Assembly: GCA_964532205.1 (NCBI GenBank)
Contig: CAZHGQ010000001.1
Coordinates: forward strand, 49,962-113,961
Direction: 5' to 3'
DNA length: 64,000 bases
Source of the DNA: an uncultured Candidatus Saccharibacteria bacterium
GTDB lineage: Bacteria; Patescibacteriota; Minisyncoccia; Phycocordibacterales; JAKAEA01
A model generated the notes under the pieces. The model saw only the letters and a program-made list of their open reading frames with translations. It made no database searches and was not told the DNA's origin. Position numbers and translations under genes: made by a program. Of this stretch, positions 1 through 57,815 are shown piece by piece; position 1 is the first letter of the stretch; the number at the start of each line of letters is the position of its first letter.

Positions 1-207
1 TTAAAGATTTTGGAAGATCATGGCGTGAAGGAAGTAAATCCAATTGGTCAAAAGTTTGACCCAATGCGTGACGAAGCCATTGAACATGTAGTTGTAACAG
101 ATGAGGCCCAGGATCATATCATTACCGATGTTGTTCAGAAGGGTTATACATTAAACGGTAAGAGTCTTAAAGCGCCTCGCGTCAAAGTTGGTGAATTCAA
201 GAAATAA
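1..207 (+). CDS. grpE: GrpE nucleotide exchange factor, C-terminal fragment (5' end outside window)
   Basis: Open frame from base 1 translates LKILEDHGVKEVNPIGQKFDPMRDEAIEHV..., a typical GrpE C-terminal domain; sits directly upstream of dnaK-dnaJ. Confidence 0.75.
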   Translation, partial: LKILEDHGVKEVNPIGQKFDPMRDEAIEHVVVTDEAQDHIITDVVQKGYTLNGKSLKAPRVKVGEFKK

Positions 208-225
208 TTTGGTATACTAGTAGAA

Positions 226-540
226 ATGTTTGAACTTCAAACAAAACGAAATATCCGTTGCTTTACTGTTGAACGCGCCACGGTTCGACTGGTTTTTGCC
301 GCACTTGTTGAGGTTCAAAATGGGGTAGAGGTTTTGGTTTCAGAACCAAAGCTTATCAAAGTGTTGCCAAAGGCTACTGCTACTTTACCGGCTGGTAAAA
401 AGCCTATCTTGGCTTTGCCAGGCATCGAAACACAGGTGGCCCACACGACTCCGGCTTACGTTTCACCCTTTGTCTCACTTCTTTTTGGTAATTCAGAACT
501 TGTTATAAACTTAGCACCCCAACCACCAACTCGAAACTAA
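226..540 (+). CDS. hypothetical ORF in grpE-dnaK gap (doubtful)
   Basis: 104-aa ORF with no recognisable motifs and a P-rich low-complexity end; may be spurious. Confidence 0.2.
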   Translation: MFELQTKRNIRCFTVERATVRLVFAALVEVQNGVEVLVSEPKLIKVLPKATATLPAGKKPILALPGIETQVAHTTPAYVSPFVSLLFGNSELVINLAPQPPTRN

Positions 541-575
541 TTTTGATTGTTTATTAATCTTAATTAGTTTTAACT

Positions 576-2447
<1,872 letters not shown>

Positions 2448-2454
2448 AGCAAAA

Positions 2455-2497
2455 GGCGGCCGAGCTGTGCTCGGCCGCCGACGCTTTGCGTCTTTCA
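2455..2497 (+). terminator. hairpin terminator after dnaK
   Basis: GGCGGCCGAGC-tgt-GCTCGGCCGCC perfect 11-bp stem 8 nt after the dnaK TAA, followed by a second small hairpin and a T-rich stretch. Confidence 0.5.
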
Positions 2498-2681
2498 AAA
2501 ACCATATCGGAGGAAGTACGCTAAACAAACCATGGAAATCAAAAGGACGGTTACCTTGAACGCATCGTACCACGTCATATCCTCCGTTACGGATTTCTGA
2601 GACTCGTAGTACCGTTCATCATTCTCTGTCATAAAACCACCCTTCTGTCAATATAGTACCATATCTTAGAAATTAATCAAA

Positions 2682-3755
2682 ATGGCTAAAAATTATTACG
2701 AAACCCTGGGAGTCGAGAAAAATGCCTCAAAAGAGGACATAAAAAAGGCCTTTCGCAAAATGGCTCATCAGTATCACCCTGACAAACAAGGTGGTAACGC
2801 TGAGAAATTTAAAGAAGTAAATGAGGCTTATTCGGTGTTGTCTGATGATCAAAAACGAGACCAATACGATCGTTATGGCAAAACCTTTAGCGATATGGGT
2901 GGTGGCGCTGGCTTCAATCCAAATGACTTTGGTTTTGATTTCTCTGGCATGGGTGGCAGTCAATTTCAGGATTTTGATATCGGTGATATTTTTGGTCAAT
3001 TTTTCGGTGGCGGCCGTGGTGGCCGACGCGAGAAACGTGGTTCTGATATTCAGGTTGATGTCGAAGTTGCTTTTGCCGAAGCGGTTTTTGGTGTCGACAA
3101 GGTTGTTAACATCAACAAAACATCTGTTTGTGAAGTTTGTCAGGGTTCGGGTGCAGAACCCAATACTGAGGTTAAAACCTGTGATACCTGTAAAGGTAAG
3201 GGTCAGATCAATGAAACACGCCAGTCAATTTTTGGGGCTATGGCTAGTGTGCGTGAGTGTCCAACCTGTCATGGTAAGGGCAAGATGCCGACGGTGAAGT
3301 GTAAAAACTGTCGCGGTGCTGGCATTTACAAAAAGCAAACTGAGATTAAGTTTGCCGTACCGGCCGGCATCAATAACGGTGAGATGTTGCGAGTCGTTGG
3401 TTCAGGTGAAGCTATTGAAGGCGGTACGACCGGCGATCTTTATATCCGTATCCATGTGCGCCGACATCCGACATTAACTAAGGAAGGCAACAACCTGTTT
3501 ATGGAACGCACCATTAAACTTACAACTGCACTTTCAGGCGGTGAAGAAGAAATTGAAACACTTGATGGCCCGCTGACTTTGAAAATCCCAGCCGGCATCG
3601 CTTTTGGTGAACTACTTCGGGTAAAGGGTAAGGGTGTACCGACAAGTAAGAGCTCGAGAGGTGATTTATTGGTCAAAATCCACATTCAGATTCCAGCTAA
3701 ACTCTCCAAAAAAGCCGCTAAGTTAGTGGATGAATTGAAAGGCGAGGGGGTTTAA
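2682..3755 (+). CDS. dnaJ: molecular chaperone DnaJ
   Basis: J domain with HPD (YHPDK), G/F-rich linker, four CxxCxGxG zinc-finger repeats. Confidence 0.95.
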
Positions 3756-4008
3756 TCACACTAGTTTACATTGTTAAAAACTTATAAACAGGCTACAATA
3801 GAAGTGTAGTCTGTTATGATACATCGACAAAATATTGTAAATACTTGCCATGTTTTGTTATGTATGTTATATTATATGCAATGCAGAACGCAGTAATTAT
3901 TAGATTAAATGATAGTCCACTTGCCCCTCTGAGTGTAGGGGGTGCAGTTTACAATTTCATGGTTTAGATATTGGCGCCGTCTTAGGGCGTCATTTTTTTA
4001 GAAAGAAA

Positions 4009-5559
4009 ATGTCACGTTCAACACTAAATATTCCGGAATCGTACAAGCGCGAAATTAAAATGCGCAAGGAGGTTGCCGAAAAGCAATTAAATTTTATTTA
4101 CGACAAAAAAAGCGACTTCTGGAAAAAAGAACAGGAGCGTCGAATGCTCGATTTGTTTCATACATCTGCAAAAAAAGTTGCTGCCTATAAGGATTTTATA
4201 AAAAAAGCCCGCGTTCATCCTGAGAAAATCCAGTCAATTGAAGATTTTCAGAAAGTTCTACCTGTAAACAAAGATAATTACCTCAGAAGTTATCCTTGGG
4301 AGAAACTTTGTATGCCAGGTTCATTGATTGAGCAATCACTTGTTCTCACTTCAACCTCAGGTTCAACCGGTCGACCATTCTATTTCCCTCGAAATGGTAT
4401 CCTTGATGCTCAATCATCGATTTACCACCAGATGTTCATACGTAATAGCAATCTTGATGTAAATAAATCAACGTTAGTGCTTGTCTGTTTCGGTATGGGT
4501 GTCTGGATCGGTGGCGTGATTACGTATCAGGCTTTCAAAACTATTTCTGAGCGTGGTTATCCATTAACTATTCTGACTCCAGGTGTAAATAAGCGTGAAA
4601 TTTACGAAGCGCTCAAGAATGTTGGTCCACAATATGACCAGATTATTATGTGTGGCTATCCACCATTCATGAAGGATGTTGTTGATGAGGCTAAAGAGAA
4701 TGGTGTAAATTGGAGCGATTTCAATATCCGGATGATTTTCGCTGCTGAATCGTTCTCTGAAAAATTCCGCGACTATATTATGAAGAAAACTGGCATGAAA
4801 AACCCATATCAGGACACGATGAACATTTACGGTAGTGCTGACTTGGGAACGATGGCTGAGGAAACGCCCGTTGCAATCTTAATCCGTCGACTGGCGCTTA
4901 AGCATAAACGAATTTATACAAAGTTATTCGGTCAGGCCACCCGCTTGCCAACATTTGCTCAGTACATTCCAATGTTCATAAACTTTGAGTGTACAAACAA
5001 TCGCGTGTACTGTACTGGTGATAATGTGTTACCACTCGTGCGTTATGAAATCGGTGACAATGGTGGCACCTGGTACTTTAAAGATGTTGAAAAGATCTTC
5101 GAGGAAGAGGGAATTAATCTTCGTGATGAAGCAAAAAATGTTGGCATAGATCATACAATTGCTGAACTACCATTTGTCTACGTCTACGAACGAACAGATC
5201 TCTCGACAAAACTTTACGGTGCTATTATTTATCCTGAGTACGTCAAGGTTGCTTTGCAAGAACATGCTATTGAAAAATACATTACTGGTAAATTTACAAT
5301 GTACACTAAACATGACGAAAGACAGGACGAGTATCTGGAAATTAACGTTGAGTTAAAGCCAGGTATTATTGAGTCATCATGGTTAAAGGAAGAAGTTACG
5401 AAATTAATTTCAGGTTCACTCTCACATCACAGCGCTGAACACAAGAACAATGTTCACATGCTCAATGGCAAAGTCACACCACGCATTGTGTTCTGGCCTC
5501 ATGAGCACCCAACACACTTCCAAACTGGTATTAAGCAAAAGTGGGTGAAGTCAGTTTAA
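4009..5559 (+). CDS. adenylate-forming enzyme, PaaK / coenzyme F390 synthetase / CapK-like (ANL superfamily)
   Basis: 516 aa. N-terminal-third motif LTSTSGSTGRPFYFP resembles the SSGTTGKP phosphate-binding loop of phenylacetate-CoA ligase family proteins. Exact substrate unknown. Confidence 0.55.
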   Translation: MSRSTLNIPESYKREIKMRKEVAEKQLNFIYDKKSDFWKKEQERRMLDLFHTSAKKVAAYKDFIKKARVHPEKIQSIEDFQKVLPVNKDNYLRSYPWEKLCMPGSLIEQSLVLTSTSGSTGRPFYFPRNGILDAQSSIYHQMFIRNSNLDVNKSTLVLVCFGMGVWIGGVITYQAFKTISERGYPLTILTPGVNKREIYEALKNVGPQYDQIIMCGYPPFMKDVVDEAKENGVNWSDFNIRMIFAAESFSEKFRDYIMKKTGMKNPYQDTMNIYGSADLGTMAEETPVAILIRRLALKHKRIYTKLFGQATRLPTFAQYIPMFINFECTNNRVYCTGDNVLPLVRYEIGDNGGTWYFKDVEKIFEEEGINLRDEAKNVGIDHTIAELPFVYVYERTDLSTKLYGAIIYPEYVKVALQEHAIEKYITGKFTMYTKHDERQDEYLEINVELKPGIIESSWLKEEVTKLISGSLSHHSAEHKNNVHMLNGKVTPRIVFWPHEHPTHFQTGIKQKWVKSV

Positions 5560-5580
5560 TTATTGTAATAAATTAAAAAT

Positions 5581-6762
5581 ATGTCTGATATACAAAAGCA
5601 ACTAGATGGTAAAAAAGACAATAAACATTTAAAACCCGAATTTTTTAATTTATCCAAACCGGCTGATGCTAAAAAAGTTGAAGAACTTCTGGCAAATGGC
5701 AAAATCCAGTACACGATTGACGACTACGAAGAACTCAACCTAGAGCTTTTCGGTGTAAAAAACCCCTCAAAGGTTTACACTCCCACATTTAAACAAGAAT
5801 TTAAGGATTATTACGAAAGCCTACAAAAAGAGAAGCCACTTCACGAACATGGTGTTTGGGTGTACTATCCTTGGTCTTCAAAATTAGTCCATATTCTTGA
5901 GGAATCAGACTATTTCCTTGTCCGAACTGCCCGAAATAAAAATCTTATCAACGCTCAAGAACAAGAGGCTTTCTACAATGCTAAAGTCGGTATCGGTGGT
6001 CTAAGTGTTGGTTCAAGTGTGGCCTTTGCACTTGTGTTGCAAGGTGGCCCAAAGCGCATCAAGCTCGCCGACATGGATAGATTAGCGCTTTCAAACACAA
6101 ACAGAATTCTATCAGGTGTTGAAAATCTTGGTGTGCTTAAGGTTGAAATGGCTGCCAGAAAAATTTATGAAATAAATCCTTACGCTGAAGTTGAGCTTTT
6201 CCCGGAAGGTTTAAATAAAAATAATATTGAAGTATTTTGTAAGGACCTTGATGTGGTTATCGATGAACTCGACAACTTAGCTGTTAAGTTTTTGATCCGT
6301 GAACAGGCCAAAAAGCATAAGTTGCCTGTTGTGATGGCTGCGGATAACGGTGACAACGCTGTTGTGGATGTGGAGCGATATGATCTTGATCCAAACCTGC
6401 CCTTTTTCCAGGGTAGAATGGGCGATGTAAGCTATGAAATGCTTTCAACACTTGATAAATTTGGTATTGGCAAGATGATTACCAAACATGTTGGCGCAGA
6501 AAATGTCACAGAGCGAATGCAACAGTCTCTTTTGGAAATGGGTAAGACCATTGTTTCGTGGCCTCAGCTAGGAGGCGCAGCGCTAATAAACGGTGCGGCG
6601 GTGGCCTATTGTGTTCGAAAAATACTGAATAAACAGTCTCTTGAGAAAGACCGATCTCTTATTAACATGGATAGCTTGCTTGATCCGCACTACAATACAC
6701 CAGAGCAGGTGGCTCACCGAGAGAAAATTGCTTCCGACTTTAAGAAGATTTTTGGGCTTTAG
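5581..6762 (+). CDS. ThiF/MoeB/E1-like adenylyltransferase family protein with N- and C-terminal extensions
   Basis: Rossmann motif VGIGGLSVGS followed by ADMDRLALSNTNR (matches the ThiF D-x-D-x-x-x-x-SNLNRQ signature). 393 aa, longer than ThiF/MoeB. Confidence 0.7.
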   Translation: MSDIQKQLDGKKDNKHLKPEFFNLSKPADAKKVEELLANGKIQYTIDDYEELNLELFGVKNPSKVYTPTFKQEFKDYYESLQKEKPLHEHGVWVYYPWSSKLVHILEESDYFLVRTARNKNLINAQEQEAFYNAKVGIGGLSVGSSVAFALVLQGGPKRIKLADMDRLALSNTNRILSGVENLGVLKVEMAARKIYEINPYAEVELFPEGLNKNNIEVFCKDLDVVIDELDNLAVKFLIREQAKKHKLPVVMAADNGDNAVVDVERYDLDPNLPFFQGRMGDVSYEMLSTLDKFGIGKMITKHVGAENVTERMQQSLLEMGKTIVSWPQLGGAALINGAAVAYCVRKILNKQSLEKDRSLINMDSLLDPHYNTPEQVAHREKIASDFKKIFGL

Positions 6763-9298: not shown

Positions 9299-10885
9299 AT
9301 GTCCGGATTTTTAAATATTGACCTGTTAAGCGTTGGTGTTGCGATTGCAGGAAATTTGTTAATTGGATTTGCAGCACTATTTTCAAATAAGAGGAATGCG
9401 ACAAATATATTATTTTTGCTTCAAACACTAATTCTTTCTTTGTGGAGTTTGGCTAATTATATTTCATATCAACCACACGACCCAACACTTGCATTATTTC
9501 TTGTAAGAATAGTTCTTTTCTTGGCTGTGCCAAATTCAATTATCTTCCTTATATTCATGCATACGTTTCCGTCGGAAAGTTTAAAAATGAGTAAGAGGAC
9601 ACTAATCGCTTTGATAATTGTATCTATCGTAACTATGGGGATCACCCTTTCACCATTTCTATTTCAAAAAGTTGTAATTAATAATACTGGTGCGCCCACT
9701 CCAGTACCGGGTGTAGGAATCATACCTTTCTTTGTAGTAAGTATTATTTCCTTACCACTTGGCTTTTATTACTTAGTAAAAAATTATTTTTTTGCAAAAG
9801 CAGACGAGAAAAAGCAATTTGCTTTTTTGCTGTTAGGTGTTGTGATCACTTTTACGACAATAATGACTTTTAATTTTATTTTCCCTAGTTTTCTCAAGAA
9901 TTCACGCTTTATTCCTCTGAGTGCCGTTTTTACCTTACCGTTTGTAATCTTTACTGCATACGCAATATATAAATATAAGCTATTTAAAATCAAGGACATC
10001 TTCACCGTCTTCATTGCGCTGGCATTGACGGTTGTAACATTCGTCGAAATTATCTTCTCCGTAGGTCTTCCTCAGGTTATTTTCCGAGTCAGCATCTTCA
10101 CAATCGTTCTGATCTTCAGCATTCGTATGATCCGTGACATGTTTGCGCTTGAATTCGCCAACGAGCGGCTCAAGGAACTCGACAAAATGAAGTCCGAGTT
10201 CGTCTCGCTGGCCACCCACCAAATCCGCGCGCCATTGACCGCTATTAAAGGCTACATTTCGCTCATTCAGGAAGGGGACTACGGCCAAGTACCAGCACCA
10301 ATTGCCGGCGCCATCGACATTATCATGCAGTCGACAAATAACCTGGTTACTATTGTTGGCGATTTCCTCGATGTCTCACGTATTGAACTCGGCCGCATGA
10401 AGTATGACTATTCTGATTTTGACTTCCAGGAGCTCGTGCAGCAAGTTGTGACTGAATACAAGCCAAATGTCGAGAAGAAAGGTCTCAATTTCAGCTACAG
10501 TTTTGATCAAAGCAAGCAGTACATGGTCCACGCTGATCGCGGCAAGATCAAGCAGGTTATTGGTAACATTATCGACAACTCTATCAAGTACACGTTGCAA
10601 GGATTCGTTAAAGTTGAACTCGGCTTTTCAAAAACAAGTCCGAATAGCGTTTTGGTCAAGGTTTATGACAGCGGTGTTGGTATTCCGGCAGCCACAATTC
10701 CAAAACTCTTCCAAAAATTTACTCGTGCGGAAAATGCCAACGATGCCAATATTCTCGGTACTGGCCTAGGTCTTTATGTGGCTAAACAAATGATTGATGC
10801 TCATCAGGGCAAACTCTGGGCTGAATCTGAGGGACAGGGTAAGGGGGCGCAGTTCTATATTGAGTTGCCGGTTAAGGGTGTGTAG
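9299..10885 (+). CDS. membrane sensor histidine kinase (no adjacent response regulator)
   Basis: About 7 N-terminal TM helices, HisKA H-box SEFVSLATHQIRAPL, HATPase_c G-boxes GVGIP and GTGLGLYVAKQMI. Confidence 0.85.
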   Translation: MSGFLNIDLLSVGVAIAGNLLIGFAALFSNKRNATNILFLLQTLILSLWSLANYISYQPHDPTLALFLVRIVLFLAVPNSIIFLIFMHTFPSESLKMSKRTLIALIIVSIVTMGITLSPFLFQKVVINNTGAPTPVPGVGIIPFFVVSIISLPLGFYYLVKNYFFAKADEKKQFAFLLLGVVITFTTIMTFNFIFPSFLKNSRFIPLSAVFTLPFVIFTAYAIYKYKLFKIKDIFTVFIALALTVVTFVEIIFSVGLPQVIFRVSIFTIVLIFSIRMIRDMFALEFANERLKELDKMKSEFVSLATHQIRAPLTAIKGYISLIQEGDYGQVPAPIAGAIDIIMQSTNNLVTIVGDFLDVSRIELGRMKYDYSDFDFQELVQQVVTEYKPNVEKKGLNFSYSFDQSKQYMVHADRGKIKQVIGNIIDNSIKYTLQGFVKVELGFSKTSPNSVLVKVYDSGVGIPAATIPKLFQKFTRAENANDANILGTGLGLYVAKQMIDAHQGKLWAESEGQGKGAQFYIELPVKGV

Positions 10886-11201
10886 ATTCCTGTAAGTAAT
10901 CAATCACTCCTTGGCGGATATACCAGGTAAAATAGGTACCAAAATAAAATAAGTCTTGTCTTCGTTCCATCATGTCATGAGCATGTCGAATATAATTCCG
11001 ACTGGCTTGCGGAAAGTATTTCCAGCCAGCCGACATTAACGCCTCGATATATTTGGTTTTAATGAAATGCTTTTTTGCATATTGGCGTACAACATTTTTA
11101 ATGAGACCACTAAAATATCGTCGACATTCCAGCTCATTAATTTCGTTTAATTGTGCGTTTTCTATAAGCTCTAATTCTTTTTGAAATCGTTTATCAAACA
11201 T
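10872..11201 (-). CDS. hypothetical protein
   Basis: 109-aa ORF overlapping the kinase stop by 14 nt; no recognisable motif. Confidence 0.35.
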   Translation of the reverse strand: MFDKRFQKELELIENAQLNEINELECRRYFSGLIKNVVRQYAKKHFIKTKYIEALMSAGWKYFPQASRNYIRHAHDMMERRQDLFYFGTYFTWYIRQGVIDYLQESTHP

Positions 11202-11248
11202 TGGATGTATTTTATAAAAACCGATGGAGTTTATCCATCGGTTGCAGT

Positions 11249-11425
11249 TTATTTGTCCTTACTGCCTGGACTTGGCAAATCTTTTGCCCATTCAGGTGCA
11301 TCACGTGGCACTGGATCCTTTCCGGTTTCAGCTTTTTCAATAGCGTGATCGATCATTGCTTCACGCTCAGCACTATTTGTTGCTGGATTACCTTCATGAG
11401 ATCCACCTTTATCAGACGGACACAT
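11249..11425 (-). CDS. small hypothetical protein (58 aa), below the ORF-track size cutoff
   Basis: Minus-strand ORF MCPSDKGGSHEGNPATNSAEREAMIDHAIEKAETGKDPVPRDAPEWAKDLPSPGSKDK preceded by a strong SD (AAAGGAG, 7 nt before ATG). The overlapping plus-strand 87-aa ORF is W/C/F-rich and looks spurious. Confidence 0.4.
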   Translation of the reverse strand: MCPSDKGGSHEGNPATNSAEREAMIDHAIEKAETGKDPVPRDAPEWAKDLPSPGSKDK

Positions 11426-11761
11426 GTAATACTCCTTTCTGAAGTTGTTTGGAACCTCTTATGAAGCTCATCTTACTTCTGACTTAATAATCTTAAATTT
11501 AAATTTGATGTAAATTTGCGACAGGTAATATCTAACATATTAACTAAATGTCAAAAAGTAATTATTGTGCTGACACTAAAAAATACTAAGACAAAAGAGG
11601 TTTTTTGATATTTGTCGTAGATATTAGACACAGAAATAAATTTATTTTATTATCTCTGTAATTCTGATTTAAGTTATTGACAGTAGATATTAAACTCTGG
11701 CTGTAACTTGACAAAAGCATAAATCCATTTAGTATTGTAATCAGTTTTTCTTGGAGGAAAT

Positions 11762-12805
11762 ATGGGTTCTTTTGAAACGTCTGCGCGTCAGCATAATGTA
11801 GCCTGGCTTACCCTGAATCGATCGTGCAACTTTCGTTGTCCGTGGTGCTATGCTCAAGGTACTGGTTTTGATCCAAAAAAGAGTCTGACCTACGACTTTG
11901 CTGTCATACTACTCAACATCATTACCGCTCTGCGCGTTAAGCTGATCATTTTGATCGGCGGTGAGCCAACGTTGTGGCCAGATTTGATTTTGTTCAATCG
12001 ACTGCTTAAGACTAAAGACATTCAAAGTGTCATTGTGACCAATGCGTACCGTTTTGGTAACAATACGTTTTGGACGGCCTACAACGAAGTTCCAAATGAC
12101 GGGGTCAATATATCACTCAAAGCCTGGGATGCCGCAAGTATGAAGTCGATCATTGGTAATGCCGACTTTGAAATACTCAAACGCGGCATTAGCCGAGGAC
12201 TCGAGTATTCCGGCGGCTCACTAAGCTTTGTAGTTTCAGAACAGTGTCTAGATCATCTTGTAGAAATGGCAGGGCTGGCAAAAAGCCTAGGCGCTCAGCG
12301 CTTAAATTTAACGATGTGTGAGCCATATATCGTTAATGGTGAGACTGAGGCTCAGGGTCTGGTTTCCACACAACGACTCAATGAGCGCTTTGTTCCTGCA
12401 TTCGCCCATGTACGCAAGCTTATGCATGAAAATGTCTCAGTCTCACTAAAAACACCCCTGTGCTTGTGGCCGAGAGACTTTCTGCAGGGTCTGATTGATC
12501 GCAAACAGCTTGTCACCGGCTGTCAGCTTCAACATCGCTCTGGTCTAATCTTTGATTACGACGGCGCTGTCTCAGTTTGCAATGGCCTCACCGACTATCC
12601 AGTCGCTAGGTACGAAACAGACTACCAGTCAGCCCCAGAACTTCAACGTAAACTTGAGTCTGAAGAAGTGGTACAATTGTACGATACAATGACGTCATAT
12701 CCGAGTACGCGTTGTAACGGATGCCCAATGTGGGAGAACTGTGGTGGTGGCTGCCCACTGTTCTGGACGTTGTATAAGCCAGAAGAGGTCATCCCTGGTT
12801 GGTGA
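11762..12805 (+). CDS. radical SAM / SPASM-domain peptide-modifying enzyme (anSME-like maturase)
   Basis: CNFRCPWCY = CxxxCxxC radical SAM cluster at residues 22-29. C-terminal CNGCPMWENCGGGCPLF = CX2CX5CX3C SPASM signature. GGAGGA SD precedes the ATG. Confidence 0.85.
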   Translation: MGSFETSARQHNVAWLTLNRSCNFRCPWCYAQGTGFDPKKSLTYDFAVILLNIITALRVKLIILIGGEPTLWPDLILFNRLLKTKDIQSVIVTNAYRFGNNTFWTAYNEVPNDGVNISLKAWDAASMKSIIGNADFEILKRGISRGLEYSGGSLSFVVSEQCLDHLVEMAGLAKSLGAQRLNLTMCEPYIVNGETEAQGLVSTQRLNERFVPAFAHVRKLMHENVSVSLKTPLCLWPRDFLQGLIDRKQLVTGCQLQHRSGLIFDYDGAVSVCNGLTDYPVARYETDYQSAPELQRKLESEEVVQLYDTMTSYPSTRCNGCPMWENCGGGCPLFWTLYKPEEVIPGW

Positions 12806-12822
12806 CCAGAAAGTGAGATGTC

Positions 12823-12993
12823 GTGAAAGGCATCAAACAACTTCTTAGAGTAACCGGACAGAAGGCGCCCCCAATCAAGGGGTTCCGGTCACAACCGCCA
12901 TCAACCAAAGCAGCAGGCTCAAAACAGCTGAACCTGGTTGACGGCAAGTGCCAGTGCGCTGACTGCGACTGCATCGACGAATGTCGAGATTAG
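12823..12993 (+). CDS. candidate RiPP precursor peptide, Cys-rich C-terminus (56 aa, GTG start uncertain)
   Basis: Only long frame between the rSAM stop and the downstream terminator: VKGIKQLLRVTGQKAPPIKGFRSQPPSTKAAGSKQLNLVDGKCQCADCDCIDECRD. Five Cys in the last 14 residues. Followed by its own terminator. Not in the ORF track (under 60 aa). Confidence 0.45.
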   Translation: MKGIKQLLRVTGQKAPPIKGFRSQPPSTKAAGSKQLNLVDGKCQCADCDCIDECRD

Positions 12994-12999
12994 TCGTCA

Positions 13000-13040
13000 A
13001 GCCCTGATTGTAGTATAATCACTGCAATTAGGGCTTTTTC
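13000..13040 (+). terminator. rho-independent terminator after the Cys-rich peptide ORF
   Basis: AGCCCTGATTG-N14-CAATTAGGGCT (10/11 bp stem) followed by TTTTT. A TATAAT inside the loop may also serve the next gene. Confidence 0.5.
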
Positions 13041-13042
13041 AT

Positions 13043-13651
13043 ATGAAATTCAACTACCACTTCTCAGAAGAGTTGGAACAAGAGCGAGTCGAGTATACCC
13101 GTAGCAAGCTTGATTTTTATACTCAAAATGGCTACCCAGTACACCTGCCACAAACCACGATTGAAGCTGAGTGGTCTGTTGATATATATGAACAGGCCAT
13201 AGCAACTATTTCAACCATCATTGATTCATACAGTCATACATTCCATGCCGGTGCCTTGGCAGCGCACCTTACTCTGTCAGATGAATACAATATTCAACTC
13301 ACACGCTACGGTGTGGGAGGGAGTTACAATCAGCCAAATACGGTTATCATCAATATTTTAAAAAAATCAGGCGAAACCAAAGGCCCACAATCACTTATAG
13401 AAAGTATTTTTCATGAAATAACTCATCTCATCATTGAGATGCAAATTCAAAAATATAATATTTCACACTGGGATAAAGAAATCATTGTTAATCTATTACT
13501 AGCAAAATTGATTCCTGAATTTGCACCTCGTATTGAGCAGAATAAATCTTCCGCTAAAGAACAGATCTGTAATCTTTTTGAAACGTTATATCCGGATGTG
13601 GAGGGGATTATCGCTGGGGTCGGGGAGGGGTATAGAGAAAAGATAAGTTGA
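13043..13651 (+). CDS. hypothetical protein with HExxH motif (possible zinc metallopeptidase)
   Basis: 202 aa with FHEITHLIIEM (HExxH); no other recognisable domain. Confidence 0.45.
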   Translation: MKFNYHFSEELEQERVEYTRSKLDFYTQNGYPVHLPQTTIEAEWSVDIYEQAIATISTIIDSYSHTFHAGALAAHLTLSDEYNIQLTRYGVGGSYNQPNTVIINILKKSGETKGPQSLIESIFHEITHLIIEMQIQKYNISHWDKEIIVNLLLAKLIPEFAPRIEQNKSSAKEQICNLFETLYPDVEGIIAGVGEGYREKIS

Positions 13652-13736
13652 CAAACCCATAAAAATAAGTTACATTAAAACCAGAAAGCCCTATTGTGTT
13701 GTAGGGTCAAGTCTCTTCTAAAAAAGGAGGTGGGGC

Positions 13737-14438
13737 ATGAATCCCACACGCATACGTTTGGTTTTGGCTCTGGTATTTGTGTTATGTACCAAAGCCTCGT
13801 ACGGTGGATCGTTCAGCATCCATACGTTTACCACAGAATCGGGCACGGGCCTGGATTCGCGCTTGTCATACACTCACTTGGTGGACACCACCATTGAGGA
13901 AATGACACCAGACAAGCTGGCGACCATCAATGGCGTGCATTTTACCCAGGGCCTTGAGCGCTGCGGTACGAATTACACAGTCAGTGGTCAGGCTGGCGGC
14001 ACGTACAACGCTTACGATGTCAACACTGGCATCTACAAGCTTCTGTACGACTACCTGTTCGATGATGAGAGTCCAACACTGCTCATCAATCTGACGGGTT
14101 TGACGCCCGGCACGGCGTACGACCTGCGCTTGTATAACGGCGGCATCTACCCGTACATCCACAAGAAGTACAAGGTAGAAGTCACTAATGGTGGTATGAC
14201 CGACAGCCTGATCGACTACGATCAATTGGCCTACGGCATGCACTATCTGCAGTACGAGTACACGGCCGAATCTAGCGCATTGGCTATTTCCATTACGCGG
14301 ACTGAGAATGCCAATGCCACTGAGATCAAGTACATGCTGGCCGGTTTCACCAATTCGGTGGTACCAGCGGCGGTTCCGGAGCCAAGCTGTTTGATGTGCG
14401 GCATCGTGATCATGACGATCATGGGTCGAAAACGCTGA
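13737..14438 (+). CDS. secreted protein with C-terminal PEP-CTERM-type sorting signal
   Basis: N-terminal signal peptide MNPTRIRLVLALVFVLCTKASYGG. C-terminus AVPEPSCLMCGIVIMTIMGRKR-stop has a VPEP motif, hydrophobic helix and basic RKR tail. Strong SD AAAAAGGAGGTG. Clearly higher GC than its neighbours. Confidence 0.65.
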   Translation: MNPTRIRLVLALVFVLCTKASYGGSFSIHTFTTESGTGLDSRLSYTHLVDTTIEEMTPDKLATINGVHFTQGLERCGTNYTVSGQAGGTYNAYDVNTGIYKLLYDYLFDDESPTLLINLTGLTPGTAYDLRLYNGGIYPYIHKKYKVEVTNGGMTDSLIDYDQLAYGMHYLQYEYTAESSALAISITRTENANATEIKYMLAGFTNSVVPAAVPEPSCLMCGIVIMTIMGRKR

Positions 14439-14464
14439 ACCACATTTTGTGCTCTAAGAAAAAA

Positions 14465-14491
14465 GGCGACATGACGTCGCCTTTTCTTTTT
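14465..14491. terminator. bidirectional rho-independent terminator
   Basis: GGCGAC-atga-CGTCGCC hairpin flanked by A-run and TTTTCTTTTT. Confidence 0.65.
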
Positions 14492-14516
14492 GTCTGATTT
14501 TTTGTACTATTGCCGT

Positions 14517-15497
14517 ATGTCATCAACTAAGATCATGGTGTCGGGAGTAAAGCCGACTGGCCGACCACACATCGGCAACTATTTCGGCGCAATGCGTCAA
14601 TTTGTTGAATTGGCTAAGAGTCACAAAAGCTACGTCTTTGTGGCCGATTTACATGCTTTGAACACGGTTCAGAATAAGGAGCAGATGCAGCAAAATATTA
14701 TTGACGTGACCTTGGATTACTTGGCTATCGGCCTTGATCCAAAAAATACTGTACTATTCAAACAATCAGACGTACCGGCTCACACTGAACTGACTTGGAT
14801 TTTTAATACCTTAGCAACCATGCCGTACTTGATGCGGGCTCACGCTTTTAAGGATGCTGAGGCTAAAAATAAGGAAATTAATGTTGGCACCTTTGATTAC
14901 CCAATGCTCATGGCTGCCGATATTTTATTGTACAGTCCCGATGTAGTACCTGTCGGCCAAGATCAAAAGCAGCATGTGGAAATTGCTCGCGACATGGCTC
15001 GCAAATTCAATCAAACATACGGCGAGACATTTAAGGAACCAAAAGAATATATTGTCGAGAACGTGAAAGTCGTGCCTGGCACTGACGGTCAGAAAATGTC
15101 AAAGAGTTATAACAACACAATTCCATTATTTGCCACAGACGAAGAAATCAAGAAAGCAGTTATGAGTATCCCGACTGATTCAAAGGGGATTGATGAGTCA
15201 AAAAATCCTGATGAAGACAAAATTTTTGCCCTGCACCAACTTTTTGCTTCAGCTGATGAGGTGGCTGACATTCGGGCTCGTTACGAGAAAGGTGGCTTGG
15301 GCTATAAGGAATCAAAAGAGATTTTGATCAAAAACATCTCAACGTTTATTACGCCAATACGCGAAAAGCGTGAGGCTTTAGCTAAAAATCCTCAGGCAAT
15401 TTTAGATATCCTCAAAGCTGGTGGGGAACAGGCTCGAGCCGTTGCCCAGACCAAATTGGCCGAGGTGCGAGATAAGATTGGTATTGCTCTTTATTAA
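14517..15497 (+). CDS. trpS: tryptophan--tRNA ligase
   Basis: Class I HIGH-like PTGRPHIGNYFGA and KMSKS (KMSKSYNN); about 330 aa. ATG at 14517 preferred over the track's TTG at 14490, which lies inside the terminator. Confidence 0.9.
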   Translation: MSSTKIMVSGVKPTGRPHIGNYFGAMRQFVELAKSHKSYVFVADLHALNTVQNKEQMQQNIIDVTLDYLAIGLDPKNTVLFKQSDVPAHTELTWIFNTLATMPYLMRAHAFKDAEAKNKEINVGTFDYPMLMAADILLYSPDVVPVGQDQKQHVEIARDMARKFNQTYGETFKEPKEYIVENVKVVPGTDGQKMSKSYNNTIPLFATDEEIKKAVMSIPTDSKGIDESKNPDEDKIFALHQLFASADEVADIRARYEKGGLGYKESKEILIKNISTFITPIREKREALAKNPQAILDILKAGGEQARAVAQTKLAEVRDKIGIALY

Positions 15498-16141: not shown

Positions 16142-17512
16142 TTGTTTTCTCCGATAGTATCTATGACAAGAATTAACATCAGTGATCTTAAAGATCACAT
16201 CTCTCAGGAAGTTTTGGTTCAAGGCTGGGTAGATATCCGCCGCGACCAGGGTAAAATGGTCTTTTTCGAGTTCCGTGATCGCACCGGTATCATTCAAGGT
16301 GTGGTTTTACCGAATAATAAGGAAGCCTTGGAAATTTCCAAAGAAATCCGTTCAGAGTGGGTTGTGTCAGTTGAAGCTATTGTGAATAAGCGACCGGAGA
16401 AAAATGTACAAGCCGATAAAGCCAATGGTGATATTGAGCTTGAAATCAAAGCAGTTACTGTTTTGAGTAAGGCTAAAGAGTTGCCATTTGAAAAGGATGC
16501 CGAACTCAATCTCGATACCTATCTCGACTCACTGCCATACACCTTGCGTAATCCGAAAAAGCGGGCCATCTTCAACATTCAGGCGGTGATTATGCGTGGC
16601 TACCGGGAATTCCTCAATAGCCAAGGCTTCACCGAGTTCAATGCACCAAAATTGATCGGTGATGACGCAGAGGGTAGTGGTGAAGTCTTTAAAGTGCCAT
16701 ATTTCTATGGTAAAACTGCTCACTTAGCTACCTCGCCACAACTCTATAAACAGATTATGGTCGGCGTCTTTGAACGTGTCTTTGCTATCGGCAACGTCTT
16801 CCGTGCCGAGAAACACTCCACCTCACGCCATATCAATGAATACACTAGCATGGACTTGGAAATGGGTTTCATTGAAAGTCACCACGATATCATGAATATG
16901 GAAACAGAGCTCTTGCGCTATATCACCAATGAATTGCGTCAAGAAGTCTCAGCAGAATTTGCTTTACTTAATGCTGAAATCCCGACAGTACCGGAAAAAA
17001 TTCCATTCATGAAATTGCGAGAGGCTCAGGAATTAATTTACAAAGAAACCGGCAAGGACAAGCGAACTGAACCAGATCTCGAACCTGAAGATGAACGTTG
17101 GCTCTGTGAATGGTCAAAGAAAACTCATAACTCTGACTTTATATTTATCACGCACTATCCGGTTTCAAAGCGGCCAATGTATACCTATGAGGATGAAAAT
17201 GATAAAGGTTTTACCAAAAGTTTTGACTTACTCTTCCGTGGTTTGGAAATCACTACCGGTGGCCAGCGCGTTCATGATTACGACCTCTTAATTGAAAAAA
17301 TTAAGGCCAAGGGTTTGGATCCGGAAAAATTTGCTTTCTATTTACAAGCCTTCAAATATGGCATGCCACCACACGGTGGCTTGGGTATGGGCCTCGAGCG
17401 ACTTACGGCCAAAATGCTCGGGCTTGATAATGTTAAAGAAGCAACATTGTTTCCACGAGATATTAATCGTATTGACTTGTTACTGTCAGATACAACTAAA
17501 GAGGAGAAATAA
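16142..17512 (+). CDS. class IIb aminoacyl-tRNA synthetase, asparaginyl- (or archaeal-type aspartyl-) tRNA synthetase
   Basis: OB-fold N-terminus, motif 2 FRAEKHSTSRHINEYTSMDLEM, motif 3 GMPPHGGLGMGLERL (the GLERL form favours AsnRS). Start TTG 16142 with SD GGAGGAG, or ATG 16163. Confidence 0.85.
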   Translation: MFSPIVSMTRINISDLKDHISQEVLVQGWVDIRRDQGKMVFFEFRDRTGIIQGVVLPNNKEALEISKEIRSEWVVSVEAIVNKRPEKNVQADKANGDIELEIKAVTVLSKAKELPFEKDAELNLDTYLDSLPYTLRNPKKRAIFNIQAVIMRGYREFLNSQGFTEFNAPKLIGDDAEGSGEVFKVPYFYGKTAHLATSPQLYKQIMVGVFERVFAIGNVFRAEKHSTSRHINEYTSMDLEMGFIESHHDIMNMETELLRYITNELRQEVSAEFALLNAEIPTVPEKIPFMKLREAQELIYKETGKDKRTEPDLEPEDERWLCEWSKKTHNSDFIFITHYPVSKRPMYTYEDENDKGFTKSFDLLFRGLEITTGGQRVHDYDLLIEKIKAKGLDPEKFAFYLQAFKYGMPPHGGLGMGLERLTAKMLGLDNVKEATLFPRDINRIDLLLSDTTKEEK

Positions 17513-17556: not shown

Positions 17557-18057
17557 CTACTCGGACTGAATGTCAGCGTGTGACCACAGCAACCGTGGCG
17601 GTAATGCGGCGCGCTCATCATCGCTCATGGTTCCCACAATGTCGCGAACATCTTCATCCTGCGGCCAAAACATAATAGCCAAGCCGTTGAATTCGGGACA
17701 GGTGACAAAGACAACAAAGTCTTCGGGGAATTCGGGTTGGGCGCGCCGATTAATCTGGCCAGTCAAACCATACCCCTTGAGAACTTCGACCGCCTGTTCA
17801 GCTGCTGCACGGCGATTAAACACCTTGAGTGCAATCACAGCCACGTGATGACCGAGTGTCTGCTGCATCTTTTTCGAGCAGTAGTTGATGATCACTTCCG
17901 AGGCCATGGGATCGTAGTGAAAGCGGCTGGCGGAGTCACTCTCGCTCTTTCGAGTCGGAATGATTTCTTGATCACTGACCGCGGCAATCACCGCGGTTAG
18001 TGCATCGCGAGTTTTCTTGTCCGGAAGCACCATGATAAAATTCATACCTGGTTTCAT
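17557..18057 (-). CDS. hypothetical protein (GC-rich relative to neighbours)
   Basis: 166 aa, strong SD (AAGGAG 6 nt before ATG), terminator downstream; no recognisable motif. Confidence 0.5.
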   Translation of the reverse strand: MKPGMNFIMVLPDKKTRDALTAVIAAVSDQEIIPTRKSESDSASRFHYDPMASEVIINYCSKKMQQTLGHHVAVIALKVFNRRAAAEQAVEVLKGYGLTGQINRRAQPEFPEDFVVFVTCPEFNGLAIMFWPQDEDVRDIVGTMSDDERAALPPRLLWSHADIQSE

Positions 18058-25017: not shown

Positions 25018-25224
25018 ATGAAACAACGGGGCTTCATAAATACCATTGTCCTGATTGTCCTGGCACTTATTGTACTCGGCTACTACCATATAGATATTAA
25101 AACAATTCTCCAAGATCCTTTGGTTAGAAGTAATTTGGAGTACACTCGAGATCAAGTCTTACAATTAGCCCGCGATGCTTGGGCAGTAGTTTTTGCTAAC
25201 GTTAAATACTATTTAAATCTTTAA
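25018..25224 (+). CDS. small hypothetical membrane protein (doubtful)
   Basis: 68-aa ORF with one TM helix; no SD. Confidence 0.25.
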   Translation: MKQRGFINTIVLIVLALIVLGYYHIDIKTILQDPLVRSNLEYTRDQVLQLARDAWAVVFANVKYYLNL

Positions 25225-25720
25225 CGTACAGTGGCTTGAGCCACAAAATATAAATATTTACGATTATGAATCCGGCGGTCCACACCCAGACCGCTTCTTG
25301 TATGTGTAACATCACGACACAGAACCAAATAATGAGTGCACCAACAAAACCCAGGCCGTCAATTATTTTTTTACGAAACAAAAGTCGGGGTGAAGAAAAG
25401 TCAGCCGGCAATATAAAATACTTAATAAGAGCAAAACCGAACAATACCACAGTCAACGTTAAGGTCGTTGGAACGTCGGCCAAATACCAAGCCAAGATGG
25501 AGTAGGTAATAACTAACAACGCATCAATTATATTTTGACTGATAGACCATGGATTCGTAAGTGCGGCAAAAACTTTAATCGAATAGTAGGTATTAAGACA
25601 TAACACAGCGTAAAAAAGAGTTAGAACTAGTGGCGGAGTGAGATCAAATACCACACTGCGGTATGATGCTAAAACCAAGAAAAACAAACTGACAAGCAAG
25701 GCTTTAAGAGACGATGACAT
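25202..25720 (-). CDS. hypothetical polytopic membrane protein
   Basis: 172 aa, about 5 hydrophobic helices. Confidence 0.5.
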   Translation of the reverse strand: MSSSLKALLVSLFFLVLASYRSVVFDLTPPLVLTLFYAVLCLNTYYSIKVFAALTNPWSISQNIIDALLVITYSILAWYLADVPTTLTLTVVLFGFALIKYFILPADFSSPRLLFRKKIIDGLGFVGALIIWFCVVMLHIQEAVWVWTAGFIIVNIYILWLKPLYVKDLNSI

Positions 25721-25722
25721 AG

Positions 25723-26454
25723 TTATGAAGAATATGGTTTGTGATAAATAACCTCTGATAAAAAGTTGGCGGCATACAAGTACGCGGTTTTAAGGAAGCC
25801 TTGGTGTTTAAAACGGCGCGCCGATGAACCAACGGTAAAACCCATGTGAAATTCAACATCACCACCGCGAGCTTTAAGCCGGCGCGCCGTGTCTGTATCA
25901 TCCCCGTAAAATAAAATTGAAGCATCAAAGCCACCGATTTCATCAAAGGCCGTTTTTTTAATTGCGACATTGCCACATAAAATCATGTAACCCACCACCA
26001 GATATGTAAGTGGTGCCGAACTGTACCACATGATTTTTAGCATTGTATTAAGCTAAAAACCGGCATCATAATATGTGTATGGGCCACTGACCGAAACCAA
26101 GCGGGGATTGCGTTGGTAGTAACGAGCTACATTTAAAAACCATTGCACATCAACTTTTACGTCAGCATCAAAAAAGGCGATCACATCACAATCGCCAACT
26201 GCCAAATAACCTGTTTGTCGTGCCTGATTGGCACCCTTACGTGGTTCATCAATAACAGTCACGCCATATGAACGGGCAATGGTGCCAGTCGCATCAGTAC
26301 TATTACTGTTAACAACTATTATTTCTGAACACTCAATGTCAGCCGGCAATGCTTTAATACTTGCTTGCAAAGAGGTAAGACAAGCACCGATATAGCGTTC
26401 TTCATTATGGGCGGGGATCACAACCGATAGTTTCATGGCCTTAATAGTAAACAA
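25723..26454 (-). pseudogene. family 2 glycosyltransferase interrupted by a single in-frame TAG (plus 26053-26055)
   Basis: Two ORFs in the same frame read ...YYDAGF-stop-LNTMLKIMWYSS.... The upstream part carries the GT2 N-terminus (VVIPAHNEE...DAD); the downstream part continues GT2 homology (GGFD...). Confidence 0.6.
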
Positions 26455-56760: not shown

Positions 56761-57666
56761 TTATCGACTCATTTGCTTAAACAGCTCATAGCCGCCAAGG
56801 AATGAATCGGTATTTTTCTGACCATACAATGGCGGAGAATACCGGATAAACACATTATAAGCCCAGGTGGGATCAATGGGCATCTTTTCAGCAAGCATGT
56901 CGCAGAGATTGTAGATACGTGGAATCATAGCATTAGCAACCGTGCCTTTGAAGACAAACTCGGTGCAGTCTGTAATCACGATGAGCGTGGCCATAAAGCG
57001 CGCCAGGCCTTCGGCAAAATCCCGATAGATTTCCTTAGCCCACGGAGCATCCTCCAGATACTGAGCATCAAGAAACTTCATGGGGTGTATCCCATCAGGC
57101 AATATGCGACGCGCCACCTCCCTAACCCGCTGTTCGAGCGAGCGACCACCGATAATCGACTCAACACAGCCGCGAGCTCCGCAGGCGCAGTGCGGCGCAA
57201 ACCGACTGGAATCGATACAGAAATGACCGATCTCACCACGCTCGAAGGCCAGTGAGCCGTCAGCCTGTACAATACGCGCCCCGACCCCACTACTGATCGT
57301 CACCCCAATAAAGCGACGATTTTTCAGCTGTGGAATCAGTTTGCGCATGCCGAGGCAAGCGCCGTCCATGTCGTTAAATACAAATGCTTGTTTGTTAACT
57401 TCATGGAATGTCTCTGTGGCCAAATGCACGCGATTGAGCCAAGGTACATTTGGCGCCTTGATGATGAGATCGTGATTCTCGATAAGACCCGCAGTTACAT
57501 ACACCACACCCGAGCAGTCGCTGGGCATATCCTGCTTCACAAAAGACAGAAGATCGGACACACTGGCCGGTGTTGATTCAACAACAACCAGTTCTCCACC
57601 ATCAGTAACATCTGCGCGACGCGCGCCAGCGCCACCGATATCGATGACCCGAACTTTTTCACTCAT
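56761..57666 (-). CDS. ROK-family sugar kinase (glucokinase-like)
   Basis: ROK signature HCACGARGCVE plus an N-terminal ATPase fold VIDIGGAG. Confidence 0.75.
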   Translation of the reverse strand: MSEKVRVIDIGGAGARRADVTDGGELVVVESTPASVSDLLSFVKQDMPSDCSGVVYVTAGLIENHDLIIKAPNVPWLNRVHLATETFHEVNKQAFVFNDMDGACLGMRKLIPQLKNRRFIGVTISSGVGARIVQADGSLAFERGEIGHFCIDSSRFAPHCACGARGCVESIIGGRSLEQRVREVARRILPDGIHPMKFLDAQYLEDAPWAKEIYRDFAEGLARFMATLIVITDCTEFVFKGTVANAMIPRIYNLCDMLAEKMPIDPTWAYNVFIRYSPPLYGQKNTDSFLGGYELFKQMSR

Positions 57667-57743: not shown

Positions 57744-57815
57744 TGACCTCACGGGGAATCGAACCCCGGTTTAAAGCTTGAGAAGCTTTCGTCCTAGCCG
57801 CTAGACGATGAGGCC
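57744..57815 (-). tRNA. tRNA-Glu (anticodon CUC), CCA not encoded
   Basis: Minus-strand cloverleaf: acceptor GGCCTCA/TGAGGTC, D-arm GTCT-AGCGGCTA-GGAC, anticodon stem AAAGC/GCTTT with loop TTCTCAA, T-arm CGGGG-TTCGATT-CCCCG, discriminator A then CCG. Confidence 0.75.

Follow-up and report, generated by a model that had tools for sequence, protein, structure and literature searches.

Introduction

Can a PEP-CTERM sorting tail be kept, and still be of use, in a member of the Patescibacteria/Parcubacteria group, known to lack an outer membrane? The question is raised by one gene in a 64,000-nt stretch (hereafter the window) of contig CAZHGQ010000001.1. The coding sequence, at 13737..14438 on the + strand (stop included), was taken from the open reading frame (ORF) list and the sequence itself; it encodes a 233-aa protein that runs from a signal peptide to a PEP-type tail. 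PEP-CTERM/exosortase sorting has been defined as a trait of outer-membrane bacteria that produce extracellular polysaccharide (EPS), and a positive finding here would be notable: PEP-CTERM organisms all have an outer membrane, EPS genes and EpsH, and their PEP-CTERM proteins, usually several per genome (median eight), are encoded in single-gene units (Haft et al., 2006; PMC1569441).

The protein descends from PEP-CTERM proteins and works like them; exosortase processing is probably no longer part of its working, because the helix of its tail has lost the consensus. The reading favored here, to which a probability of about one half is given, is that of a Sec-exported surface lectin in which a vestigial PEP-CTERM tail is used as a plain membrane anchor.

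A PEP-Type Tail That Scores Below PEP-CTERM Models

The protein ends in NSVVPAAVPEPSCLMCGIVIMTIMGRKR-stop, i.e., VPEP (aa 213-216), 14 hydrophobic residues and RKR; its final residues read GFTNSVVPAAVPEPSCLMCGIVIMTIMGRKR. All parts lie on the + strand. A linker, VVPAA (aa 209-213), and P214-E215-P216, both read from the sequence, span 14361..14384, with the PEP codons at 14376-14384. The hydrophobic helix SCLMCGIVIMTIMG (aa 217-230) spans 14385..14426 and is covered by helix 216-231 of an AlphaFold2 (AF2) model, and the basic cluster R231-K232-R233, likewise read from the sequence, forms the extreme C-terminus (14427..14435). The VPEP, hydrophobic helix and Arg/Lys cluster that a first-pass annotation of this DNA had described are thus present, at aa 213-233.

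The alignment of 51 family members places this tail. P214 is invariant and E215 and P216 are at least 90% conserved; the target P214-E215-P216 aligns with the PEP of 49 of the 50 other family members having a recognizable tail. At the same alignment position TIGR02595 is matched by 35 and PF07589 by 40 of the 51 sampled members. Because relatives in the passenger family carry TIGR02595/PF07589 tails there, the target tail is, on sequence grounds, PEP-CTERM-type by position and homology, not by model score.

Even at E ≤ 10, TIGR02595 and PF07589 matched neither the full-length protein nor its tail taken alone; the tail matched only the C-terminal ends of two PEP-CTERM families, NF038129 and NF038126, at 13-19 bits (cut-offs 65 and 50). 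On PF07589, with a cut-off of 20.7 bits, the ortholog P0002 reaches 8.3 bits and the high-GC relatives P0003, P0009, P0011, P0020 and P0023 reach 15.4-21.3 bits. A family tail hidden Markov model (HMM) was built from the other 48 family tails, whose scores as training sequences are inflated by construction (minimum 25.9 bits, median 44); it gave 10.8 bits for the window tail and 9.6 for P0002. When VPEP and RKR were held and the helix shuffled, the window's score on this HMM was matched in 58 of 200 trials. The tail helix is rich in Ile, Met, Cys and Thr, departing from the Leu/Ala/Gly-rich PEP-CTERM consensus, and the only features kept are PEP, one Gly, the basic end and the hydrophobic architecture. 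The first-pass annotation had called for a run of TIGR02595-type HMMs and had taken a failing tail as one half of a refutation, the other half being a genome devoid of exosortase genes; the target tail fails both TIGR02595 and PF07589. The PEP-CTERM-type assignment consequently holds by homology, through the 35 of 51 family members that match TIGR02595, and fails for the protein's own tail on both models.

The comparison with the described system is mixed. Like PEP-CTERM/exosortase proteins (PMC1569441; TIGR02595, PF07589), the target has a signal peptide, P-E-P, a short hydrophobic helix and a terminal basic cluster; like PEP-CTERM genes, it is a single-gene transcription unit whose passenger is without a characterized homologue, and homologues of that passenger carry tails matching PEP-CTERM models. 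Unlike them, it has a tail below detection on TIGR02595 and PF07589 with the deviant helix composition given above, its host is a Patescibacterium, and one tail was seen, with no exosortase, in the DNA scanned. The target is not fileable as a formal PEP-CTERM member, because its tail scores under the thresholds of the models, its host is of another type and a partner enzyme has so far not been found.

Exosortase and Other Sorting Systems

The polytopic membrane ORFs of the window, scanned with Pfam and two of them with NCBIfam, gave no exosortase family match, as the first-pass annotation had claimed. The genes called around the ortholog at locus L001 of a related organism (~20 kb) include no exosortase or polytopic candidate, and the window ORFs scanned gave no sortase or archaeosortase family match. 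Across the six frames of the window, the target is the sole ORF with a PEP + hydrophobic + basic C-terminus and the only one with any C-terminal hydrophobic + basic anchor; the loci scanned from the L001 organism hold one such tail each in L001 (20.7 kb) and L003.

In archaea without an outer membrane, PGF-CTERM proteins are processed by the archaeosortase ArtA. Both the ArtA/PGF-CTERM and the sortase/LPXTG systems act on Sec-exported proteins of monoderm-type cells and use a tripartite C-terminal signal composed of a motif, a hydrophobic helix and basic residues. The tripartite tail of the target is like theirs; unlike theirs, it has no LPXTG or PGF motif. An LPXTG/sortase anchor was rejected: the tail has VPEPS and no LPXTG, and the window protein has no Gram_pos_anchor match. 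The only match to that model was in the relative P0023, at 10.7 bits, which is chance level.

Signal Peptide, Passenger Domain, and Its Family

The N-terminus, MNPTRIRLVLALVFVLCTKASYGG, is built of n, h and c regions like a Sec signal peptide (aa 1-23; 13737..13805, + strand): a basic n-region (R5, R7), a hydrophobic core (LVLALVFVL) and the small residues S21 and G23. By the -3/-1 rule, cleavage probably follows S21-Y22-G23. The segment was read from the sequence, and the AF2 model has a helix at 3-16 and its first beta strand from residue 25; layout and helix together bear out the signal peptide proposed earlier. A bacterial lipoprotein was rejected, there being no canonical lipobox ([LVI][ASTVI][GAS]C) and F-V-L standing before C17; the same position reads F-L-F in P0002, and P0003 has no Cys.

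The passenger domain (aa 24-208; 13806..14360, + strand) is predicted to be a malectin/CBM57-like beta-jelly-roll, and carries the motifs YTHLVD, INGVHF, LTGLTPGTAYDLRLY, HYLQYEYTA and GFTN. The AF2 model, made from the 51-sequence alignment, is confident (pLDDT 88, pTM 0.83) and consists of the N-terminal helix 3-16, a beta-sandwich at 25-208 and the C-terminal helix 216-231; Foldseek agrees with this picture, the beta-jelly-roll being superposable on solved malectin/CBM57-like members. The references are malectin (PDB 2k46), the FERONIA ectodomain (6a5e) and the sugar-binding domain of Bacteroides GH2 beta-glucuronidase (6d50, 6ed1). In sequence, the target is only 9-13% identical to these modules. 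No Pfam or NCBIfam domain matched the passenger, Pfam Malectin and CBM models included; a weak CBM_4_9 match was found in 1 of the 51 relatives. A profile search of PDB sequences returned only a ~30-residue fn3-like strand-turn-strand motif, LTGLTPGTxYxxRxY, and an fn3 domain was rejected, the match being a local one. Sugar binding by the passenger is suggested by the predicted fold alone.

Close relatives are few. A word-indexed search gave only three matches: the protein itself, P0002 (48-49% identity; E = 4.6e-62) and P0003 (37%; E = 4.6e-29). When 1.84 billion cluster representatives were searched exhaustively with a profile, 792 matched at E ≤ 1e-3 and 296 at E ≤ 1e-10, the 792 being representatives at 50% clustering. 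In the 51-sequence alignment, the window protein has all six invariant residues (including the first Pro of PEP) and 10 of the 11 near-invariant ones. Many family members are 230-260 aa long and have the same layout with textbook tails, e.g., NEVVPEPASLGLLGMAGLGLLARRRRA; others are giant proteins with 2-5 domain copies. The matching species-representative genomes number four, all Verrucomicrobia, with ~1000-aa proteins of 3 or 4 domain copies. Some members, from Planctomycetes and Phycisphaeraceae, are labeled "PEP-CTERM sorting domain-containing protein" by NCBI. The passenger family is native to Planctomycetota/Verrucomicrobiota-type (PVC) bacteria.

The small PVC PEP-CTERM relatives (~230-260 aa; e.g., P0171 [Planctomycetes bacterium], P0003/P0009 and P0011) share the domain of the target, which is also repeated in tandem in Verrucomicrobia surface proteins of ~1000-2700 aa (L005-L008, P0010); similarity to these PVC relatives reaches E values down to 1e-29 with the single sequence and 1e-91 with the profile. 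The target resembles them in its order of signal peptide, domain and tail and in the motifs YTHxxD, NGVxF, LTGLTPGxxY and, right before the tail, GxxN. Unlike the target, the PVC relatives are of high GC content (50-54% for L005-L008, 55% for L009) and have tails near the consensus, whereas the target and P0002 make up a fast-evolving Patescibacteria branch of their own (97/100 bootstrap), on which the tails are degenerate.

The ~190-aa domain itself (YTHxxD...NGVxF...LTGLTPGxxY...GxxN) is widespread, alone with a PEP-CTERM tail or in tandem, yet has no Pfam model; the present case flags this large lectin-like family. Among its members, P0105 has a different tail, and P0165 is labeled MYXO-CTERM by JGI.

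Host and Envelope Type

The window MraY shares 87% identity with its counterpart in the L001 organism, 80% with that of locus L010 and 73% with that of L011, and is 65-80% identical to proteins labeled by NCBI as Patescibacteria group, Candidatus Parcubacteria, Pacebacteria/Paceibacterota and Campbellbacteria. By these named relatives, the host is assigned as a Paceibacteria/Parcubacteria-type Patescibacterium, a member of the Candidate Phyla Radiation (CPR). This assignment agrees with the gene content of the 64 kb, which includes type IV pilins along with PilB and PilC, genes for peptidoglycan and a large number of housekeeping genes. No outer-membrane biogenesis genes were seen among the window ORFs scanned.

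Three earlier statements about the host fare well. Its monoderm-like character agrees with MraY relatives from Patescibacteria, Parcubacteria and Paceibacterota; the absence of outer-membrane genes in the 64 kb agrees with the ORF scan; and a Cheo-type box, GAACAATCGTTC, is indeed present 34 nt upstream of lexA, where its position alone is informative, one match per 64 kb being the chance expectation. This box, GAAC-N4-GTTC, differs from the Verrucomicrobia LexA motif TGTTC-N4-GAACA (PMC4951493).

The window also encodes a DnaK (576-2447, + strand), whose first 103 residues align with E. coli DnaK without a gap and which is offset by 24-26 residues against the Geobacillus and M. tuberculosis proteins, i.e., carries a ~24-residue N-terminal insert. 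Such an insert is often quoted as a Gram-negative marker. A Firmicutes/Actinobacteria-type DnaK is ruled out by it; the envelope type is not settled thereby.

Acquisition and Retention of the Gene

The target gene stands apart from its surroundings in composition. Its GC content is 0.52 vs. 0.418 for the whole window, and its GC at third codon positions (GC3) is 0.678 vs. a mean of 0.393 (sd 0.062) for the 63 other ORFs, a z of 4.6; codon positions 1 and 2 do not stand out in GC (z 0.35). In codon usage it is farther from the rest than any other ORF of the window. The first-pass annotation had noted the gene as GC-rich relative to its neighbors and had suggested comparing GC and codon usage; run against the window ORFs, the comparison agrees and makes the target the strongest outlier.

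Comparison with related loci dates the arrival. In at least four Logan assemblies the P0002 ortholog lies directly 5' of trpS, as the target does, and the downstream order at L001 is that of the window: aspS/asnS ... scpA-scpB-dacB-mraY. Identities between window and L001 are 76% (75.5%) for TrpS, 80-81% for ScpA, 80-83% for ScpB, 67-69% for DacB and 87% for MraY, whereas target and P0002 are only 48-49% identical. At L010 a serine-hydrolase (Ser_hydrolase) gene abuts trpS and the target homologue is absent; none was found at L011. Foreign codon composition (the GC3 z of 4.6 and the codon-usage outlier) and absence from the syntenic site of L010 support horizontal acquisition of the gene by this host, as judged from sequence and synteny. 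Presence at the trpS locus of L001, together with 48-49% identity against 67-87% for most flanking proteins, marks that acquisition as old and the gene as retained: as read from these loci, it entered the lineage after the L010 split and before the window/L001 split and has been intact since.

A phylogeny of the passenger domain, proposed with the first-pass annotation and now run by neighbor-joining on 45 domain sequences, pairs the window protein with P0002 as its sister, with the support of 97 bootstraps out of 100. Independent recent acquisitions by the two genomes are rejected on this ground. The nearest neighbors of the pair are P0003, P0009, P0011 and a few others; P0003, the nearest relative outside the lineage, lies on a contig of 55% GC. 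GC3 is raised in both Patescibacteria copies, to 0.68 vs. ~0.39 for neighboring genes in the window and to 0.56 vs. ~0.35-0.40 for P0002. The fourfold-degenerate sites of the flanking genes are 27-44% identical between window and L001, near saturation. As a rough check, this residual identity implies only partial amelioration in each lineage, so GC3 values of 0.68 and 0.56 are compatible with a very GC-rich donor. We infer that the gene was acquired once, from a GC-rich PVC-type donor and not long before the window and L001 genomes diverged, and has been partly ameliorated since.

An intact ORF, a conserved core and conserved expression signals in both lineages suggest that the gene is in use in both. 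The earlier description as a horizontally acquired cargo gene is therefore right in part: the gene is foreign by codon composition and absent at L010, but it is neither recent nor cargo of the adjacent radical-SAM block described below. What the locus documents is PVC-type to CPR gene flow at a variable site beside trpS, a clear and datable case in which a PEP-CTERM-family gene moved into a Patescibacterium and was long kept while its sorting tail drifted from the consensus, decaying or re-purposed.

Membrane Anchor or Sorting Signal

In the favored reading, the protein would be exported by Sec and its signal peptide removed, probably after G23; the lectin-like domain would fold outside the cytoplasmic membrane; and the C-terminal helix, its RKR facing the cytoplasm, would serve as a stop-transfer anchor and keep the domain at the cell surface. 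The ligand there would probably be a glycan, belonging either to the envelope of the cell itself or to a host cell. In the donor lineage the tail would be processed by exosortase; here, the PEP-CTERM signal would be a vestige of the donor's pathway. The vestigial anchor is favored because the tail has drifted in both Patescibacteria copies, because a single copy is present and because no exosortase is found in the accessible DNA.

Several points weigh against this reading. The exosortase scan covers 64 kb of a 139.8-kb contig, so the genome may encode an exosortase elsewhere. Both orthologs have kept P-E-P, a hydrophobic stretch and a basic end though the rest of the tail has diverged; such retention at ~49% identity would have about a 1-in-8 chance without selection and is weak evidence for a recognized signal. 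A hydrophobic segment of 14 residues is short for a permanent bilayer anchor and resembles cleaved sorting signals more, and a tether of ~8 residues would hold the domain at the membrane face, an awkward position for contact with a host cell. Only the modeled fold suggests glycan binding. Exosortase subfamilies recognize divergent tails, so that failure on general HMMs does not prove lost function.

These points lead to the alternative that the tail is a working signal: an exosortase/archaeosortase-family enzyme encoded outside the window would cleave at or near PEP and transfer the lectin to a lipid, a glycan or the wall, the tail having co-evolved with a divergent enzyme. We regard this as possible, if rather doubtful. 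Its best support is that PEP, the hydrophobic stretch and the basic cluster survive in both orthologs despite near-saturated synonymous sites, in a helix whose 14 residues are typical of cleaved sorting tails. The single-gene unit is also as in PEP-CTERM genes (PMC1569441). Given the ArtA/PGF-CTERM archaea, introduced above, an outer membrane would not be mechanistically required. What stands against it is the lack of an exosortase both in the 64 kb and in the ~20 kb around the ortholog; the occurrence of one such tail per stretch, vs. a median of eight in PEP-CTERM genomes (PMC1569441); and the behavior of the tail on the models, i.e., failure on TIGR02595/PF07589 and a family-tail score no better than that of helix shuffles. 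Both Patescibacteria tails score far below their high-GC sister sequences, as expected once the recognizing enzyme is lost, and a literature search found no paper that links exosortase/archaeosortase or PEP-CTERM with CPR/Patescibacteria.

A bolder form of this idea, which we hold to be unlikely, is that a CPR lineage without an outer membrane runs a working exosortase/archaeosortase-type pathway, taken over or adapted together with the lectin gene from a PVC-type bacterium, possibly its host, with the lectin serving cell-cell attachment. With a working pathway, Patescibacteria would have their first PEP-CTERM-type sorting system, and an exosortase in the genome would be a pointer to an unrecognized sorting pathway in CPR bacteria. 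The locus is a natural test of tail function without the cognate machinery. Unless the exosortase question is answered positively, current understanding is unchanged, and the case is a modest curiosity and not a new system.

It is highly improbable that the gene is a relic in decay, or that foreign DNA was wrongly joined to a Patescibacteria contig during assembly or binning: the strongly deviant codon composition and the scarcity of close relatives among about 15 billion proteins would fit, but the gene-trpS junction recurs in assemblies made independently (the window's own NCBI contig, with the exact protein, P0001; ENA contigs with a variant differing by one residue, P0004; and at least four Logan runs for the ortholog), for which reason an assembly chimera was rejected, the ORF is intact in two lineages near fourfold saturation, all invariant family residues are present, the fold prediction is confident and the expression signals are conserved.

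Transcription Unit and Neighboring Genes

The expression signals of the target gene, all on the + strand, are closely spaced. A promoter-like TTGACA-17 nt-TACATT, with 10 of 12 consensus matches in a scan for consensus only, lies at 13648..13676 and overlaps the stop of the upstream HExxH gene; a TTGACA is found 5' of the L001 ortholog as well. The Shine-Dalgarno sequence AGGAGGTG, read from the sequence at 13725..13732 with a gap of 6 nt from GGAGG to ATG, is as strong as the first-pass annotation had it, and the L001 ortholog is preceded by the same element, AAAGGAGGTG. Between target and trpS, a scan and RNA folding identify an intrinsic terminator at 14461..14495, with a 10-bp G+C-rich stem, a 5-nt loop and a T-rich tail (hairpin at 14461-14485, -16.2 kcal/mol, z -4.3; none of 200 shuffles equally stable); the L001 ortholog is likewise trailed by a hairpin and T-run. 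The scan found no good + strand terminator between the HExxH gene and the target; a strong one at 12999-13036 follows the peptide gene and precedes the HExxH gene. Of the claim that the gene is flanked by terminators, then, the downstream half holds and the upstream half does not. By these signals the target gene is predicted to be its own transcription unit in both the window and the L001 genomes.

Upstream on the same strand lie a radical-SAM/SPASM gene (11762-12805, +), a 56-aa Cys-rich peptide ending in GKCQCADCDCIDECRD (12823-12993, +) and the HExxH protein (13043-13651, +). A functional tie of the target to this block, as substrate, carrier, or immunity or export component, with arrival as one island, is scarcely credible. 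Adjacency on one strand, the somewhat raised composition of the radical-SAM gene (GC 0.48, GC3 0.47) and the two Cys in the target tail speak for it, but the HExxH gene has an ordinary GC3 (0.36), the strong terminator behind the peptide gene and the target's own promoter-like site, Shine-Dalgarno sequence and terminator separate the units, and the family members examined give no sign of a link of this kind. The radical-SAM/SPASM, peptide and HExxH homologues are found at none of the loci L001, L010 and L011. Because L001 keeps the target at trpS without radical-SAM, peptide or HExxH genes, and has an RHS/SpvB-type toxin and unrelated ORFs in their place upstream, the target is not part of the block. 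The stretch upstream of trpS thus appears variable in this lineage and the block to be a separate variable insert; the position at the end of a radical-SAM-peptide-HExxH block given in the first-pass annotation is real as adjacency but is not conserved in relatives.

At L001, positions 1-6434 hold an SpvB/RHS-repeat toxin-type protein of more than 2200 aa and a 346-aa RHS-core-like ORF, both 5' of the target ortholog. Downstream, the aminoacyl-tRNA synthetase genes resemble a xenolog mosaic (trpS at 14517-15497 and aspS at 16163-17512 in the window; 10796-13578 at L001, 3050-5868 at L010 and 160-1551 at L011). The window TrpS is 75.5% identical to that of L001 and only 35% to that of L010, despite MraY identities of 87% and 80%. 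The window AspS is of the archaeal, non-discriminating type (NF003483, 512 bits) and is 60% identical to that of L010 but only 33-35% identical to the L001 and L011 proteins encoded at the equivalent position. Between aspS and scpA lies an orphan 166-aa ORF (17557-18057, - strand; GC3 0.58) with no NCBIfam match; at this position L001, L010 and L011 have a ~600-aa ABC transporter.

Farther along, a GT2-like glycosyltransferase (25202-26454, - strand) is apparently split into 26053-26454, 25723-26043 and a 6-TM ORF at 25202-25720 without a family match, and may be a frameshifted or decaying gene. The second-largest codon-usage outlier of the window is a 301-aa ORF (56761-57666, - strand; GC 0.51, GC3 0.53), which adjoins the only tRNA gene (57744-57815, - strand) and may be another foreign insert.

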